A DNA stretch of 64,000 nucleotides, taken from Syntrophales bacterium. Lineage in GTDB: Bacteria; Desulfobacterota; Syntrophia; Syntrophales; PHBD01. The position numbers and the translations under genes were made by a program. The stretch spans positions 1,920,001-1,984,000 of the forward strand of contig OY764159.1 of NCBI GenBank assembly GCA_963668175.1. Reading direction: 5' to 3'. Shown piece after piece: positions 18,466 through 27,703 of the stretch. The notes beneath the pieces were generated by a model. It was not told the origin of the DNA, made no database searches, and saw only the letters and a program-made list of their open reading frames with translations. Position 1 is the stretch's first letter. The number at the start of each line of letters is the position of its first letter.

Positions 18466-19902
18466 ATGCATCGCGAAATAAATCGAATTCGTGAGAAAAT
18501 GGGAACTGCTCCATGGCCCAAGTATCTAGCATCAGTACAGATAAGAAACCTACGAGGTTGGACAGGACAAACAACACGTTTCCCTTTCCCTGTGACAGTA
18601 GTTGTGGGCGAAAATGGTTCAGGGAAATCAACCATATTGAAAGCTGCAGCTTCCGCTTATACAAATAATATTCCAGGAAAATCATTTGCCGCAGGTACAT
18701 TCTTTCCAGATACGCCGTGGGAAACAATCACAGATGCTGTAATCACTTACGAAGTAAAGCAAGGAAACCAATCGCGCCAATTCAGTATCAGGAAACCTAC
18801 AACTCGTTGGCGTTTACCAAGTTCGGGTAGACCAAAGAGGGATGTAATCTGGCAAGATGTATCAAGAACTTTGCCATTAGATTCAACCGTAGGTTACTCG
18901 AAAATTGCCAAGAGAGCTGCTAGCGAAGTCTCATCAAATATTCTGATGCCGGATATTCATAAATATTTTTGTATGGTTTTAGGAAGACCATATGAAGAAT
19001 CCGGTTTCGCGGTAGCCAATGTAGATCAAAGTAAAAGCGTTGGGGTGGTGCGATATGGAGGTACAAGGTACTCCCAGTTCCATCAAGGGGCAGGAGAAGA
19101 CGCAACGCTTGACTTAATGTCAGTTCTTCAAAATATTCCGGAGACCGCTTTAGTAATCATTGATGAGATCGAAGCGTCTCTCCACCCCAGAGCCCAAAGA
19201 CGTTTGGTTCATTTCTTGCTGTGGCTTGCGCGCACAAAACAAATCCAAGTAATAATCTCGACCCATAGCAAATATATAATAGATGAACTTCCACCGGAAG
19301 CACGGGTCTTTCTTTCAAGGTCTGGTGAAGGCGTTGAGGTCATTTACGGCGTATCATCGAATTATGCACTTGATCGGATGGATGATATAGAGGCTCCCGA
19401 TTTATACGCTTTTTGTGAGGACAAAGAATCTTGTTGTTTGACGACGGAGTTGCTTCGCAAGGCTGGCATTGACCTGTCAAGAATACGGCCGATGGGCGTT
19501 GGACCCAATGATGTTGTCAAAGTGTTGGGCCGACTAGGCGCAGGGAACCGACTTCCAATTCCGTCAATTGGTGTTGTTGACCCGGATATGGAGGTTAGTA
19601 TCGGGTGCGTTAAAATACCGGGCATTAATGCACCTGAGCGTCAGGTTTTCCAAGATATACGCGATCATGCGATATCGATGCTGGCGAGTCGTATTGGTAT
19701 CGAAGAAGGTGTAGTAGCAGGTCATCTTGAGCAGACTATCGCAATTGAGGATCACCATGACTACCCCAAGGAATTTTCAAGATGGATCAATAGAACTCCG
19801 GAATATACGTGGGAGATTATGTGTCAAATTTGGGTTGAGAATTGTGTAAATCAAGATGCAATCGATGAATTCGCGCAGCCCTTTAATGAAAGTTTGTTCT
19901 AA
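18466..19902 (+). CDS. ABC/AAA ATPase with TOPRIM-like C-terminus (OLD-like; candidate defence protein)
   Basis: Walker A GENGSGKS, signature FHQGAGE, Walker B IIDEIEASLHP, STHS, then FCED...GVVDPD; markedly AT-richer than the flanks. Confidence 0.8.
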   Translation: MHREINRIREKMGTAPWPKYLASVQIRNLRGWTGQTTRFPFPVTVVVGENGSGKSTILKAAASAYTNNIPGKSFAAGTFFPDTPWETITDAVITYEVKQGNQSRQFSIRKPTTRWRLPSSGRPKRDVIWQDVSRTLPLDSTVGYSKIAKRAASEVSSNILMPDIHKYFCMVLGRPYEESGFAVANVDQSKSVGVVRYGGTRYSQFHQGAGEDATLDLMSVLQNIPETALVIIDEIEASLHPRAQRRLVHFLLWLARTKQIQVIISTHSKYIIDELPPEARVFLSRSGEGVEVIYGVSSNYALDRMDDIEAPDLYAFCEDKESCCLTTELLRKAGIDLSRIRPMGVGPNDVVKVLGRLGAGNRLPIPSIGVVDPDMEVSIGCVKIPGINAPERQVFQDIRDHAISMLASRIGIEEGVVAGHLEQTIAIEDHHDYPKEFSRWINRTPEYTWEIMCQIWVENCVNQDAIDEFAQPFNESLF

Positions 19903-22357: not shown

Positions 22358-25156
22358 GTGAGCGGTTACGGGTCCGGGGAACGGACTCTGGTCCGGCGGA
22401 TGTATCATCCCCGTGTAGTAGGTTTGGGGCTTGGATTCTTCTGTGTCGCCTCGGTCTTCTACGAGCAGCCGACGCCGGTCTTATTGTGGGCCGCCCTCTT
22501 CGCCAACGGGTTCGTCTGGCCGCACCTGGCCTTCTACCTGGGAAAAACGAGCGCCAATCCCTACCTTGCCGAGAGGAGGAACGTCATGATCGATTCCTTT
22601 CTCGGCGCACTTTGGCTCCCCCTGATGTCTTTCAACATGCTCCCTTCGGCAACGCTCGTCTTTATGTTGAGTTTAGACAACATCGCCGTAGGCGGTTTCC
22701 GGCTGTTTATCAAGGGCATCCTGGCACAGGCGGCGGGGGCGCTGCTCGCGGTCCTTCTTTTCGGCTTCCATGTCCGCCCGGAATCGAATCTGCTGAACGT
22801 CCTGGCCTGCCTGCCGATGCTGGGCCTGTATCCCCTGCAGATCGGCTACGTCTCCCATCGCCTGGCGCAGAAGCTGAACCGGCAGAAGAAGGAACTGGAA
22901 GGTGTCAACGACGCGCTCCGGGAATCGAATACCAGGCTGACCGGGGCTTACGAAGATCTGCGGGAGGCCGATAGGCGCTACCGGCTCATATCGGAAAACG
23001 CGGGCGACGTCATCTGGCTCTGGGATCTGGCGAACAAGCGCTACGACTACGTGAGCCCTTCCGTTACGAAACTCAACGGTTTCACGGTGGAAGAAGTTAT
23101 GCGGCAGACCATGACCGATGCACTGCCGCCCGAGTCCCTCCGCCTTTTTATCGCGGAGATGGGCCGCCGCTTGCGGGCCCTCGAGGCGGGAGACGAGACC
23201 GCCCGCGCGCAGTCCTACGAGATGATGCATTATCGGAAAGACGGGACACTCGTGCCGACGGAAGTCATGACGACCGTCATCACCGATGCACAGGGCAAGC
23301 CGATACTCATTCAGGGCATGACCAGGGACATCAGCCGCCGCAAGCAGGTGGAGGCGCGGCTCCGGGAAAGCAATGCGCAGCTCGATCTGGCGCTGACGGC
23401 GGCGCGCATGGGGACCTGGTATTTCGATCTTGCGGAAGACAGGCGTTATCTCGACAGGAGGGCATGCGATCTCCTGGGCGTCGATCCGGAAATGTTCCAG
23501 GGGACGGTGGAGGAATTTCTGCAGGTACTGCACCCCGACGACCATAACAAGATCAGGGAGGCCATGGACCGGACCATCAAAGAAGACGTGCCTTACGAGC
23601 TTGAATACCGGATTGTCACGCCCGGCGGCATCCGCCACATCGCCGCCCGCGGCATGCCGGTCCGGGACGGTATGGGGCGGCCGGTACGGGTCAACGGCGT
23701 TCTCTGGGACGTCACGGAACGGAAGCAGACGGAAGACGCCCTCCTCGAGTCGGAAAGAAAGTTCCGGGACCTGTCCGAAAAGTCGAACGTCGGTATCTTC
23801 CTCATGCAGGACGGGTTCTTCAGATACGCAAATGCGGGATTCGCCCGGATCATCGGCTACGAAGTCGCGGATATATTAGACCACCTGACGCCGGCCGACG
23901 TGATGCACCCGGAGGACCTTCCCGTTCTGAACAAGCGCCTGAAAATGAGATTCGATGGGGAAACCATGTCGAACAGCTTTATATACAGAGCGCTCGCCAA
24001 GGGAGGCGAAGTCAGGTACGTCGAGACGTACGGATCGGTCACCTCTTTCCGGGGAAGGCCCGCCGTCATCGGCACCCTCCTCGACGTGACCGACCGCCGG
24101 CGGATGGAGGAGGCCCTCAGGGAAAGCGAAGAGAGATACCGCTCCATCTTCGAGCGTGCGACGGAAGGGATATACCAGAGTACGCCGTCAGGCCGCTTCA
24201 TCCAGGTCAATCCGGCCATGGCCAGGATCTGGGGGTACGGCTCGCCTGCCGAAATGGTCGCCGAAGCCACGGATATCGCGCAGCAGCACTATGTGGATCC
24301 CCGGGACCGGGAGCGGTTCAAAGCCGCGATCGCCGAGCACGGCAGCGTGGAAGGCTTCAAGGTCGAGATCCGCCGCCGGGACGGCGTAAGGATATGGGTA
24401 TCGCTCAACGCCAGGGCGGTTTACGACGATGCGGGCACTCTGGTCTTCTACGAGGGCACGAACGAGGACATCACCGAACAGAAGCTGATGGAGGATATGA
24501 TCAGGGAAAACGAGAGGCGCTACCGTCACCTGGTGGAGAACAGCAACGACATTATCTACACCACGGACCTCGCGGGACGGATTACCTACGTCAACCCCGC
24601 GACGGAACGGATAACGGGCTTCACCGTCTCCCAGTTGCTGGGCAAAAAGGGCCTGAGGATGATCCGGGAGGATTGCCGCGAAGAGGCGTATGTCTTTTAC
24701 AACCGGCAACTTGCGGAGGGTGTTCCCTTCACCTACAATGAATTGCCCGTCATTACCCGGGACGGGACGGAAAAATGGCTGGGACAGCAGGCCCAGATCA
24801 TTTTCGACGGGGAAAAGCCCGCCGGTTTTCAGATGACGGCGCGGGATATCACCGACCGCCTGAAAGCCGAGGACGAGCATCGCCAGCGGGAAAGACTGGG
24901 CGCGATTATCGAGATGGCCGGCGGGGTCTGCCACGAGATGAATCAGCCCCTCCAGATCATCTACGGGTTGTCGGACCTGATGAGGATGCGCACAGCCGAG
25001 GACCATCCTTTTCGCCGTCAGATCATGGCCATCAAAAAAGCCGCTGACAGGATGTCCTCTATTACGAAAAAGCTGACGGGGATTACGAAATACGAGACCA
25101 AGCCCTACGTCGGCAACGTCAGAATCGTCGACATCGACAGATCGTCGGTGAAATAA
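22358..25156 (+). CDS. MASE2-like membrane sensor + multiple PAS + HisKA, with no HATPase domain
   Basis: N-terminus RRMYHPRVVGLGLG..WPHLAF is AdrA-type MASE2; five PAS/PAC repeats; H-box CHEMNQPL; protein ends about 65 aa later. Confidence 0.85.
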   Translation: MSGYGSGERTLVRRMYHPRVVGLGLGFFCVASVFYEQPTPVLLWAALFANGFVWPHLAFYLGKTSANPYLAERRNVMIDSFLGALWLPLMSFNMLPSATLVFMLSLDNIAVGGFRLFIKGILAQAAGALLAVLLFGFHVRPESNLLNVLACLPMLGLYPLQIGYVSHRLAQKLNRQKKELEGVNDALRESNTRLTGAYEDLREADRRYRLISENAGDVIWLWDLANKRYDYVSPSVTKLNGFTVEEVMRQTMTDALPPESLRLFIAEMGRRLRALEAGDETARAQSYEMMHYRKDGTLVPTEVMTTVITDAQGKPILIQGMTRDISRRKQVEARLRESNAQLDLALTAARMGTWYFDLAEDRRYLDRRACDLLGVDPEMFQGTVEEFLQVLHPDDHNKIREAMDRTIKEDVPYELEYRIVTPGGIRHIAARGMPVRDGMGRPVRVNGVLWDVTERKQTEDALLESERKFRDLSEKSNVGIFLMQDGFFRYANAGFARIIGYEVADILDHLTPADVMHPEDLPVLNKRLKMRFDGETMSNSFIYRALAKGGEVRYVETYGSVTSFRGRPAVIGTLLDVTDRRRMEEALRESEERYRSIFERATEGIYQSTPSGRFIQVNPAMARIWGYGSPAEMVAEATDIAQQHYVDPRDRERFKAAIAEHGSVEGFKVEIRRRDGVRIWVSLNARAVYDDAGTLVFYEGTNEDITEQKLMEDMIRENERRYRHLVENSNDIIYTTDLAGRITYVNPATERITGFTVSQLLGKKGLRMIREDCREEAYVFYNRQLAEGVPFTYNELPVITRDGTEKWLGQQAQIIFDGEKPAGFQMTARDITDRLKAEDEHRQRERLGAIIEMAGGVCHEMNQPLQIIYGLSDLMRMRTAEDHPFRRQIMAIKKAADRMSSITKKLTGITKYETKPYVGNVRIVDIDRSSVK

Positions 25157-25402
25157 CCGGGAGAAAACGGATTTCTCTTCGCGAACACGGCCAATCGTTT
25201 ATCGTGTCGTCCTTCCCGCAAACATAACGGCTGCCCGTGTTTCCGGGCTGCGCCGCCGTGACCGGGATTTCTGTTGTGAATTTGCAGCCTTACTGCTTAT
25301 GCCGGCCTGTGTCGTGCGGGAAAAGGCGATTTCCGCAAGGTTTCTTACGGTCATAATGTGAACATTCCGCGAATGGGATTGCGTTTATCTGATCGCGTCG
25401 CC

Positions 25403-25418
25403 TGGCGCACAAATTGCA
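25403..25418 (+). promoter_or_regulatory. Sigma-54 -24/-12 promoter
   Basis: TGGCGCACAAATTGCA, near consensus. Confidence 0.65.
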
Positions 25419-25471
25419 ATTCCGGCCGCCTCTTTTTTAGGCAATAAGCTAAAAAAACAGTCGTGGCGGCG

Positions 25472-25527
25472 TTTATCACAGTCATCAACAGCTTTATCAA
25501 CATAGATATCCACATCCCTGTGGATTG
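25472..25527. promoter_or_regulatory. Cluster of five DnaA-box-like 9-mers
   Basis: TTTATCACA 25472, TCATCAACA 25482, TTATCAACA 25494, ATATCCACA 25506, inverted TGTGGATTG 25519. Confidence 0.5.
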
Positions 25528-25774
25528 AATAACCAAGTCCTTGAGCCGACGACAAAATCGTGGAAACAGAGGCGTGGCCTGCTTCTTTCCCGGCTTCCCG
25601 GAAGCGGCGTTTTGGGCCCGCCATCAGACAAATACCGATAGTCAACTGCCGTCCCCTCCTACGGAAGAAATATTTTTTTTCCCAGTTCAAATTCAGACGG
25701 AAGACGATTGTTAAAAAAAAGCCGGGAGATTAATCTATAATCGAAAGAAGAGGAAAGGAGGCAGCAGGAAGACG

Positions 25775-25927
25775 ATGACAGCAGAAATCATCGGCATCAG
25801 GACCGGCGGAAAAGTTGAGTTCAACCCTCAGGACCACATCCTGGGAAAACACACGGGCGGTCCCCGGCTGCTTCCCCGCGACAATGAAGGTAAACATCCG
25901 GACGGAACATTCATGAAGGCCTTTTAG
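25775..25927 (+). CDS. Micro-ORF A (50 aa)
   Basis: MTAEIIGIRTGGKVEFNPQDHILGKHTGGPRLLPRDNEGKHPDGTFMKAF; AAAGGAGG upstream, TATAAT at 25736. Confidence 0.5.
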   Translation: MTAEIIGIRTGGKVEFNPQDHILGKHTGGPRLLPRDNEGKHPDGTFMKAF

Positions 25928-25942
25928 CGAGGAGCCGTTGTC

Positions 25943-26059
25943 ATGATAAAGGAACGTAAACCGGAAAGAAGAGAACGAGAAGGGAAATACCGGGCCTGCA
26001 AACGCGGCGGAATCTGGATAGACCCGATGAGCTTTCCCCACCTCGAAAAGATGAATTAA
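25943..26059 (+). CDS. Micro-ORF B (38 aa, basic, GGIWIDP)
   Basis: MIKERKPERREREGKYRACKRGGIWIDPMSFPHLEKMN; GAGGAG RBS. Confidence 0.55.
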   Translation: MIKERKPERREREGKYRACKRGGIWIDPMSFPHLEKMN

Positions 26060-26084
26060 CGAACGACAAGAAGGGAGAAGAGCG

Positions 26085-26183
26085 ATGAAAAAGAGAACCG
26101 TAAGGAAGATCGAAAAACCGATCGAAAAGAAAAGAATCAACAAGGGCTGGATCGATCCTACGTGCACGCCGATGGATCTGTAG
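26085..26183 (+). CDS. Micro-ORF C (32 aa, basic, KGWIDP)
   Basis: MKKRTVRKIEKPIEKKRINKGWIDPTCTPMDL; AGGGAG RBS. Confidence 0.55.
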   Translation: MKKRTVRKIEKPIEKKRINKGWIDPTCTPMDL

Positions 26184-26225
26184 GAGCCCAGAAGACTTAA
26201 CGGACACATCATTCAGCCAATGATG

Positions 26226-26268
26226 AAGGGGCGATCGGTAGCGATACTGAAAGCCCCTTTGTTATTTT
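26226..26268 (+). terminator. Terminator-like hairpin closing the micro-ORF unit
   Basis: AAGGGGC..CGGTA-GCGA-TACTG..GCCCCTT followed by a T-rich tail. Confidence 0.55.
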
Positions 26269-26593
26269 AGATGGATTTGCCGGTTCGAACCGGCGCAGCA
26301 GAACATGTTACCCGAATATCCCCGGTGCCAGCAGCCGAAATTCCCGATACACGGGAATCGTTATTGATCGGCGGGGCGTCTTATTTATTCTCCATGATCA
26401 TCTCCGGAAGCGTCTGAGGCCGATTAGGGTTTTTCGCAGGTTTATTTCCGGAAACACCCCATAGAAAACGGCGATTCCCTATTTTACACTGTCTGCGGAA
26501 GGGCTGCCGCTTCCGTGTGCAGGCGTATCCTTGCGAAGAATCGGTTTTGACGGCAGCAGGTACGGCCATGGGCATCAATGGGAGGGGTAGACG

Positions 26594-27703
26594 ATGCATA
26601 GTCAAAAATACCTATTTGAGAGGATGCTGGCCCCTGCCGGCATCAGGATCAACGGCAACGGCCCGGCGGACATTCGGGTCAGGGACGAGAGGTTTTATGC
26701 GCGGTTGCTGCGCTACAAGAATCTGGGCCTCGGCGAATCTTACATGGAAGGGTGGTGGGACTGCCAGCGCCTGGACGAACTGATCTACAGAGTACTGACC
26801 GCAAGGATCGACAAAAAGATCGTAGGGGGCCTGAAGCTCCTTTTCCCGTCAATCGCCGCCGTCTTTCTCAACATGCAGTCGCGGATGCGGGCCTTCGATG
26901 TCGCCGAGCGGCACTACAATCTCGACAACGATCTTTTCATGTCCTTTCTCGATCCTTACAACCAATACAGTTGCGCCTACTTCGACGGCACCGGCGACCT
27001 GAACGAGGCCCAGGTAAAAAAGATGGACCTCATCTGCCGCAAACTCGACCTCAAGGCGAACGACCGCGTGCTCGACATCGGCTGCGGCTGGGGCGGACTG
27101 GCGAAATACATGGCCGAAAAGCGCGGATGCCGCGTGACGGCCGTCAATATATCGGACAGGCAGATCGAATACGCCCGCGAAACTTGCCGAGGGCTGCCCG
27201 TGGAGATCGTCAGGAAGGATTATCGCGATCTCGACGGCTGTTACGACAAGATCGTCTCCGTCGGCATGTTCGAGCACGTGGGGATGAAGAACTACAGGAC
27301 CTTCATGACGGCGGTGCACCGCTGCCTCAACGACGGCGGCATCTTCCTCCTTCACACGATCGGCAATAACGAATCGCGGATCAAGTGCGATCCCTGGATA
27401 CACAAGTATATCTTCCCGAACGGCATGCTGCCCAGTATCGCCCAGATCGGCAAGGCGGCCGAGGGGCTCTTCGTCACGGAAGACCTGCACAACCTGGGGC
27501 CGCACTATGCAAAGACGCTGATGGCCTGGCACGGGAATTTCCAGAAGGCGTGGCCGCAGCTGAAAAGCAAGCACAGCGAAACTTTCAAACGCATGTGGGA
27601 TTTCTACCTGCTGTCCTGCGCCGGGGCCTTCCGGGCGCGCGACATCCAGCTCTGGCAGTGGGTGCTGACCAGGTACGGCACGACCCAGCCCTGCTGCCGA
27701 TGA
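26594..27703 (+). CDS. cfa: Cyclopropane-fatty-acyl-phospholipid synthase
   Basis: LGLGESYMEGWW, YSCAYF, LDIGCGWGG, SVGMFEHVG, DPWIHKYIFPNG, FRARDIQLWQ. Confidence 0.96.
   Translation: MHSQKYLFERMLAPAGIRINGNGPADIRVRDERFYARLLRYKNLGLGESYMEGWWDCQRLDELIYRVLTARIDKKIVGGLKLLFPSIAAVFLNMQSRMRAFDVAERHYNLDNDLFMSFLDPYNQYSCAYFDGTGDLNEAQVKKMDLICRKLDLKANDRVLDIGCGWGGLAKYMAEKRGCRVTAVNISDRQIEYARETCRGLPVEIVRKDYRDLDGCYDKIVSVGMFEHVGMKNYRTFMTAVHRCLNDGGIFLLHTIGNNESRIKCDPWIHKYIFPNGMLPSIAQIGKAAEGLFVTEDLHNLGPHYAKTLMAWHGNFQKAWPQLKSKHSETFKRMWDFYLLSCAGAFRARDIQLWQWVLTRYGTTQPCCR

Follow-up and report, generated by a model that had tools for sequence, protein, structure and literature searches.

The described systems closest to the unit reported here are the small acid-soluble spore proteins (SASP) and similar abundant small nucleic-acid-binding proteins encoded by scattered genes, tiny lineage-specific ribosomal proteins such as bTHX, bS22 and bL36, the streptide-type and other Trp cross-linked members of the ribosomally synthesised and post-translationally modified peptides (RiPPs), and the CbpA/CbpB pair. 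The unit is a tandem set of three open reading frames (ORFs A, B and C) on the + strand, at 25691-26268 of a 64,000-nucleotide stretch from Syntrophales bacterium (assembly GCA_963668175.1, contig OY764159.1, positions 1,920,001 to 1,984,000; this whole stretch is called the window, and positions are those of the window unless another source is given). Judged by its sequences, it belongs to a family, so far uncharacterised, of basic microproteins that are encoded in tandem and confined to the order Syntrophales. The family resembles SASP in its scattered self-contained units, shared promoter layout, own terminators and high transcript level, but it has no sequence relation to them (A, B and C have no match in Pfam at E up to 10), its peptides are basic and not acid-soluble alpha-helical DNA binders, and its genes stand in fixed tandem sets of different types; the host order is not known to sporulate. 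With bTHX, bS22 and bL36 it shares a length of 25-45 amino acids (aa), strong basicity and a ribosomal-protein-like transcript level (in one data set), but it differs from them in its several paralogues per genome, its dedicated regulated promoter and the absence of any ribosomal match in Pfam, NCBIfam or the PDB. The likeness to both groups lies in organisation, size and charge, and on this comparison the family appears to be a member of neither. In being short and in having a conserved Trp that follows a Lys by a few residues, the peptides recall the streptide-type RiPPs; unlike them, the family has no adjacent radical SAM enzyme or transporter at any of 22 loci. CbpA is likewise a short peptide with a Lys-rich N-terminus, and the pair is present in the same genome, but the CbpA model finds no match in A, B or C.

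As far as sequence evidence goes, A, B and C are very probably three genuine co-transcribed protein genes, members of a real coding family, with their own promoter region and their own terminator. The unit comprises the following features, all on the + strand:

25691-25698 (+), ATTCAGAC, and 25706-25715 (+), GATTGTTAAA: conserved upstream boxes, a likely regulator or promoter-recognition site
25736-25741 (+), TATAAT: likely -10 element, 30 nucleotides (nt) after the start of the GATTGTT box, with CGAAAGAAG directly 3' of it
25755-25761 (+), AAGGAGG: Shine-Dalgarno sequence of ORF A, 13 nt 5' of the ATG, with AGGAAG nearer to the ATG
25775-25927 (+), ORF A: 50 aa, A-type microprotein with a conserved N-half (..R.EFNPQ...LG) and a basic variable tail
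25929-25934 (+), GAGGAG: Shine-Dalgarno sequence of ORF B, at 8 nt
25943-26059 (+), ORF B: 38 aa, B-type, basic N-terminus followed by [KR]-x-G-G-I-W-x-D-P-[MT]-[CS]-[FY]-P
26071-26077 (+), AAGGGAG: Shine-Dalgarno sequence of ORF C, at 7 nt
26085-26183 (+), ORF C: 32 aa, C-type, starting MKK.., basic N-terminus followed by K-G-W-x-D-P-[TM]-[CAS]-T-P
26226-26259 (+): intrinsic-terminator-like hairpin with a T-rich tail to 26268, ending the unit

The genes are separated by 15 nt (A-B) and 25 nt (B-C). The segment 26184-26275 has a fold energy of -29.7 kcal/mol (z = -4.03, none of 200 shuffled sequences being as stable), and a GC-rich hairpin followed by a T run occurs at the equivalent position in both paralogous copies; the terminator is absent from the list of a consensus scan of 25100-26700 because its hairpin loop is longer than the limit of the scan. 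The Rfam 15 covariance models gave no match in the same interval at E up to 1. Direct reading of the sequence found the TATAAT, the three ORFs, the gaps, the Shine-Dalgarno sequences and the hairpin where a preliminary description, made from the sequence alone, had placed them, and the GGIWIDP of B and the KGWIDP of C, each after a Lys/Arg-rich N-terminus, were seen as it had claimed. Its statement that B and C each have one Cys is true in the window, but the two residues are not equivalent (before the G-G in ORF B, inside the core in ORF C), and in homologues Cys is exchanged at the core position; the label 'unannotated' was not borne out, since the protein collection already lists sequences identical to A, B and C as products of this contig.

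The 87 aligned B-type sequences share the core [KR]-[VR]-G-G-I-W-[VYI]-D-P-[MT]-[CS]-[FY]-P, in which G22, G23 and W25 never vary and D27, P28 and P32 reach 90% conservation or more. The 22 aligned C-type sequences have the core K-x-W-x-D-P-[MT]-[CAS]-[TFY]-P, with M1, W22, D24, P25 and P29 invariant; the core common to both types is W-x-D-P-x-x-x-P. At its Cys position, 25 of 85 B-type peptides have Ser, and 6 of 22 C-type peptides have Ala or Ser. The N-terminal part, rich in Lys, Arg and Glu, varies in length and sequence and carries a median net charge of +6 before the Trp; from the Trp onward the median charge is -1 or 0. The peptides with this core (W-type) are bipartite: a variable basic tail (about +6) is joined to a conserved C-terminal W-x-D-P-x-x-x-P knob. 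The AlphaFold2 (AF2) model of B (87 rows) has a predicted beta-hairpin around the G-G and a short C-terminal helix; its mean predicted local distance difference test value (pLDDT) of 69.4 is only moderate and its N-terminus is of low confidence, with residues 21-30 reaching a pLDDT of 87. In the alignment of 17 A-type peptides, the N-terminal ..R-I-E-F-N-P-Q-x-x-L-L-G is followed by a basic variable tail. The first gene of one genus joins an A-like N-half to the W-x-D-P motif, which links the types.

Selection on the encoded peptides is visible in the codon positions. The paralogues compared were picked by DNA similarity, and the comparison is therefore free of selection bias for the + frame. 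In ORF C, paralogue differences on codon positions 1/2/3 were 1/3/15, 4/7/18 and 3/5/15, third positions accounting for 15 of 19, 18 of 29 and 15 of 23; over the B core and the A N-half they were 6/2/6, 5/2/12, 6/3/8 and 7/2/10, the third position leading or tying. The summed entropies of positions 1/2/3 over 30 B cores were 5.4/4.1/14.6. The ratio of nonsynonymous to synonymous differences (pN/pS) of the + frame core was 0.29 for 30 distinct B cores and 0.49 for 37 C-type cores, with no stops, in sets that had been selected by the + frame motif and are biased to that frame. The ATG codons, Shine-Dalgarno sequences, stops and terminator are kept on the + strand in the copies. The earlier suggestion that the B and C peptides, which are paralogues, are themselves under selection is borne out by the third-position excess and by these core ratios.

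A DNA search found two more copies in the same genome (69% identity over all three ORFs in one, 66% over B and C in the other), both of which show equivalent small frames with the same cores when read, and a motif scan added two further loci, bringing the total to at least five. Outside these five inspected loci, a further A-type match lies at 4468434-4468550 (+) of the same genome (E 8.3e-10). Among 61 genomes, the DNA search matched 6, own genome counted, with partial matches in relatives. The search for homologues across Syntrophales that had been proposed at the outset found B-type relatives in 42 of the 301 sampled genomes of the order, belonging to 7 of 24 families, at up to five places per genome and mostly in open frames of less than 100 aa. 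The A-type profile matched 40 of these 301 genomes; tallied from both profile tables, 31 genomes have both types, 9 have A only and 11 have B only, 51 of 301 carrying either. A wider B profile matched 3 of 401 genomes sampled over the phylum, all three in the same order, and none of the 387 phylum genomes outside the order.

In protein collections the B profile retrieved 85 clusters (28-74 aa) and the A profile 222 clusters, all of them unnamed or 'hypothetical protein' and without a Pfam domain; an exhaustive hidden Markov model (HMM) search of 1.84 billion representative proteins found only 36 (32-159 aa). A, B, C and their paralogues had no match in NCBIfam at E up to 10, except for a weak unrelated PatC row; PHROGs and PADLOC gave nothing at E 0.01 or better, and no curated cut-off was reached in any described protein family searched (Pfam-A, NCBIfam, PHROGs, PADLOC). 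The A, B and C profiles yielded 0, 0 and 2 noise rows against the PDB (the best being ribosomal S19, E 1.6), the best ESM Atlas score of ORF A was 0.77, below the usable range, with no usable match for ORF B, and six core-motif strings of the family, searched in the literature, were found in no paper. Function aside, we rate the family, from these searches, as lying outside every described kind and as known in databases only under unnamed or hypothetical proteins.

Thirty loci were fetched with the B profile and typed by HMMs; the set includes the window, some orthologous loci and at least two loci cut by contig ends. Their gene orders were: ABC (9 loci), ACBC (7), AB (5), BC (4), B alone (3), ABCC (1) and CBC (1). 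An A-type gene comes first in 22 of the 30 loci and a C-type gene follows B in 22 of the 30; the genes in a locus are always on the same strand, and neighbouring family genes are a few bases apart or overlap. Natural in-frame fusions were found between A and B (P0094), C-type and B (P0086, P0105) and B and C (P0034, P0038), and P0099 is a B-type peptide with a Cys-rich tail. Such a set comprises two to four paralogous basic microproteins; its fixed gene order, the translational coupling and the natural fusions point to peptides that act together. At two loci there is also a possible fourth type, a Lys-rich small ORF with its own Shine-Dalgarno sequence on the same strand downstream of a W-type gene (own genome about 3822622-3822729 (-), and L052:5883-6080 (-)); both candidates end in E-C-Y-E-S-T-[LI]-V.

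The loci also share their upstream layout. Of 23 aligned regions upstream of a first gene, 21 contain a GATT[GT] box, mostly as GATTGTT(T)AAA, and (G/A)ATTCA stands about 16 nt 5' of the GATTGTT(T)AAA box. A TAnnnT element is found at +30 from the box start in 13 of the 21 box-bearing regions, and at +25 in 16 of the 21; the conserved CGAAAGAAG directly adjoins the +30 element, and the layout box - 30 nt - TAnnnT - CGAAAG is common to four families. The string GATTGTTWAA has nine occurrences in the 4.57-Mb genome, three of them at these operons. If the +30 element is the -10, the boxes would lie at about -58 to -31, a position suiting an activator that overlaps the -35 region; alternatively the +25 element may be the -10, with TTGTTA as -35 and a 17-nt spacer. 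A relaxed pattern of two boxes plus a -10 matched four places in the whole genome (the window operon and three places without family genes) and revealed no wider regulon, the pattern being too strict in that it misses even the other four loci of the genome.

Expression is known from a relative alone, no RNA run with this locus being among the 23 sequencing runs listed for the genome itself. The B peptide of locus L053 is identical, letter for letter, to the NCBI protein CSYNP_01881 (117 bp, 'hypothetical protein'), for which the table of an endosymbiont transcriptome gives 3,911 transcripts per million (TPM) (PMC10579272, supplementary file 5, Dataset 4). In that TPM-sorted table, which covers about 4,484 genes, the gene occupies the 30th data row and outranks EF-Tu (2,041) and most ribosomal proteins, and the genes flanking it have TPM values of 0 and 13.8 (PMC10579272). 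The A and C peptides of the L053 operon are absent from the protein collection, where only the 38-aa middle gene is found, indicating that A and C were not called as genes in that relative. The phrase 'hypothetical protein' has no occurrence in the main text of PMC10579272 and, so far as that text goes, the paper does not appear to discuss these genes. Homologues, conserved reading frames and, at the transcript level, evidence of expression were all found; the preliminary description had named a lack of homologues, of conserved frames and of translation evidence as what would count against it.

The same table holds further short abundant transcripts. CSYNP_01901 (123 bp, TPM 12,334, third row) lies between yebS and a 2,241-bp gene (PMC10579272), and the A plus C-type pair of locus L052 has neighbours of the same kind; the L052 peptides, also when read from an upstream TTG, were looked up by exact sequence and had no record, and CSYNP_01901 is a candidate member of the family. 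Other short (99-150 bp) genes among the most abundant transcripts are CSYNP_03205, 02907, 02908 and 00511, and recurring among the top transcripts are pairs in which one 'hypothetical' gene has 276 bp and the other 237 bp, for example CSYNP_01883/01884 and 02127/02126 (PMC10579272).

The explanation that we tentatively favour makes the peptides basic microproteins of the cytoplasm, abundant and jointly regulated, whose binding partner is polyanionic. A dedicated DNA-binding factor would act on the conserved GATT boxes and turn all the loci on together and in large amounts; the peptides would be used as made, free, unmodified and cytoplasmic, with A, B and C working as one set; the basic tails would grip the polyanionic partner (rRNA or the ribosome, DNA or another nucleic-acid-rich structure), and the W-x-D-P knob would provide specific docking. 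The parts of this explanation differ in strength: that the peptides are unmodified cytoplasmic proteins acting together as a set has roughly an even chance, and that they specifically bind a polyanion or the ribosome (nucleic acid) is a possible but doubtful, putative role that would fit their composition and transcript level.

Several points weigh against this explanation. The case for polyanion binding consists of composition and transcript level, and there are up to about a dozen family genes per genome, unlike small ribosomal proteins, which are normally single-copy. The AF2 model of B is of moderate confidence, the pN/pS sets lean to the + frame by their selection, the consensus scan of 25100-26700 called no sigma-70-like promoter, and a maturase may be encoded elsewhere in the genome. 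The transcript evidence comes from one organism and one study (PMC10579272, ISME J 2023), in which poly(A)-tailing modified SmartSeq2 and per-length normalisation may favour short A-rich mRNAs, and in the same table CSYNP_03868, the A-type gene of a second locus, has a TPM of 162, and the adjacent 114-bp gene a TPM of 0.

Among the rivals, the one that survives best, itself improbable, takes the peptides for RiPP precursors in which an unlinked enzyme would cross-link or cleave the W-x-D-P-[MT]-[CS]-x-P core (for example through a radical SAM cross-link of the Lys-Trp or Trp-centred kind), with the basic N-terminus as recognition leader. Short peptides with a sharply conserved core containing Trp, Asp, Pro and often Cys, with a Lys or Arg 2-5 residues before the Trp, would suit such precursors, as would the several precursor-like genes per locus, the several loci per genome and the fused multi-core forms, and the genome encodes seven SPASM-domain radical SAM proteins and one YcaO. 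The neighbourhoods speak otherwise: the two closest large ORFs per side were scanned at 21 clusters, which lie in 20 larger loci, and none of these 83 ORFs encodes an ABC exporter, a peptidase or a radical SAM, YcaO or lanthipeptide enzyme; nor is any of 26 window ORFs a peptide-modifying enzyme, peptidase or exporter, and no peptide-modifying enzyme lies within 10 kb of the unit. The inspection of neighbours for maturases, also proposed at the outset, thus found none flanking the 22 loci; flavin reductase/nitroreductase genes and a few DNA-repair genes recur there with no clear pattern. RiPPs usually combine a conserved leader with a more variable core, some classes with a fixed core being exceptions. 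The present peptides reverse this pattern, with variable N-terminal two thirds and an unvarying C-terminal core, and their core Cys is exchanged for Ser or Ala.

The one RiPP lead was a pair close to one paralogous locus:

L048:2354-3885, own genome 3686853-3688384 (+): CbpA/CbpB pair, 4 kb from the third microprotein locus

CbpB (TIGR04163), one of the seven SPASM-domain radical SAM proteins, scores 695.8 bits against a cut-off of 375, and the 37-aa CbpA (TIGR04164; L048:2354-2464, just before CbpB), which also starts Lys-rich, 55.6 bits against a cut-off of 35. The co-variation test of unlinked enzymes covered CbpB, which is above cut-off in 23 of the 301 genomes of the order, mostly in families without microproteins, but in only 4 of the 51 microprotein carriers and in none of the 8 other genomes of the host's own family. 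A tblastn search with CbpB against the 20 large loci and the window matched CbpB alone, and the window peptides match neither the CbpA model nor any NCBIfam precursor model. The phyletic pattern of CbpB and its absence at the other loci indicate that it is not the maturase of the microprotein family, and it was rejected as a trans maturase: it comes with a CbpA precursor of its own, 47 of the 51 carriers lack it, and it is not near the other loci examined. The suggestion of the preliminary description that the peptides are RiPP-like precursors modified in trans is therefore unsupported: no maturase was found among the flanking and window ORFs, the conserved core is C-terminal, and CbpB is rare among the carriers.

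Small proteins such as MgrB and Sda modulate signal transduction elsewhere, and a slightly less probable rival makes the peptides modulators of adjacent sensor histidine kinases, sigma-54 activators or response regulators. At 9 of the 21 clusters (L047, L048, L049, L050, L051, L052, both in L053, and L060) the two closest large ORFs per side include a signalling protein (PAS/GAF/Cache kinase, sigma-54 activator or LuxR-type regulator), and in the window, too, a MASE2-PAS-HisKA protein (22358-25156) ends 580 nt upstream of the unit. The genome is however so rich in kinases and receivers, with 107 HATPase_c and 126 receiver-domain matches, that such adjacency is often expected by chance and was given little weight. 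The neighbouring signalling proteins differ in architecture, 12 of the 21 clusters have no such neighbour, some of the positive loci are orthologous and non-independent (L049 and L050), and a ribosomal-protein-like transcript level is unfit for a stoichiometric regulator of a rare kinase.

For a genome of 4.57 Mb these numbers of two-component domains are unusually high, and many of the signalling-domain matches fall within open frames that are about 1,000 aa long or longer, which would fit hybrid kinases. The sensor upstream of the unit (22358-25156 (+), 932 aa) comprises MASE2, five PAS stretches and HisKA without HATPase_c; no HATPase_c match lies near it in the genome-wide search, and the approximately 580 nt after it (25157-25690) hold no recognisable gene. 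From its domain composition it may be a kinase that lacks a catalytic domain, or else the gene may be truncated. Downstream of the unit, the window has a cyclopropane-fatty-acid-synthase-like gene (26594-27703). Further upstream, at 18466-19902 (+), an AAA_21/AAA_15 ATPase (AbiEii/OLD-like P-loop) stands between ORFs without Pfam matches and, by its sequence, may be part of a defence or mobile island.

Very unlikely is a role outside the cell as exported cationic peptides, leaderless bacteriocin-like or signalling. Peptides of 25-45 aa that are cationic, contain Trp and come in tandem sets would be compatible with it, and by analogy the invariant G-G before the B-type core could be a double-glycine processing site; C-type and A-type peptides, however, have no G-G, and the peptides, strongly hydrophilic, lack both a signal peptide and any hydrophobic stretch. 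All 22 loci are without a flanking ABC exporter or immunity-like gene, the Peptidase_C39 domain is absent from the genome in a genome-wide domain search, and PADLOC and PHROGs, as stated above, gave nothing at E 0.01 or better. A class II or leaderless bacteriocin was accordingly rejected as a candidate, there being no nearby exporter or immunity gene and no Peptidase_C39.

The other strand carries one more feature:

25730-26212 (-): antisense open frame, 160 aa, judged not to be a gene

That the real product lies on this strand or is not a protein (the 160-aa frame, a hydrophobic peptide opposite ORF C or a structured RNA) is highly improbable: each of the three own-genome copies does have an antisense frame running open through the entire unit, and the hydrophobic stretch opposite ORF C is 63% identical between copies, but these frames are open because the + strand is T-poor and purine-rich, leaving few antisense stop codons, they differ in length (160, 271 and 199 aa) and have no common start, their similarity is limited to the stretches opposite ORF C and ORF A and is gone opposite ORF B, the lone antisense frame of low pN/pS is the wobble-sharing one, interrupted by stops in 9 of 30 B and 9 of 37 C homologues, pN/pS is 1.06 to 1.78 in the remaining antisense frames, the terminator and the Shine-Dalgarno/ATG signals are on the + strand, and Rfam gave no matches at E up to 1. 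A type I toxin-antitoxin system was rejected on the same stops and on the start, which is not conserved.

Syntrophic Syntrophales bacteria, whose physiology is poorly understood, have a key part in the methanogenic degradation of fatty acids and aromatics. The bolder form of the favoured explanation, in which cytoplasmic microproteins bind a polyanionic partner, is speculative and rather unlikely as a whole: basic microproteins, up to about a dozen per genome, would be produced as one regulon at the levels of ribosomal proteins and would form a new class of stoichiometric cell components whose W-x-D-P knobs plug into the ribosome or nucleoid and remodel it in a particular physiological state, with a dedicated regulator reading the paired GATT boxes. 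Alternatively, the peptides may be precursors of a new Trp-centred modified peptide whose enzyme is unlinked. Standard annotation can miss much of such a family, a single 38-aa gene having been called in the operon of the relative. The fixed promoter layout offers a handle for finding the regulator and the inducing condition, and the W-x-D-P-x-x-x-P core a handle for finding the partner; a conserved, multi-copy and tightly co-regulated family that is transcribed, in one transcriptome, on a par with ribosomal proteins and core catabolic enzymes likely matters to these cells.

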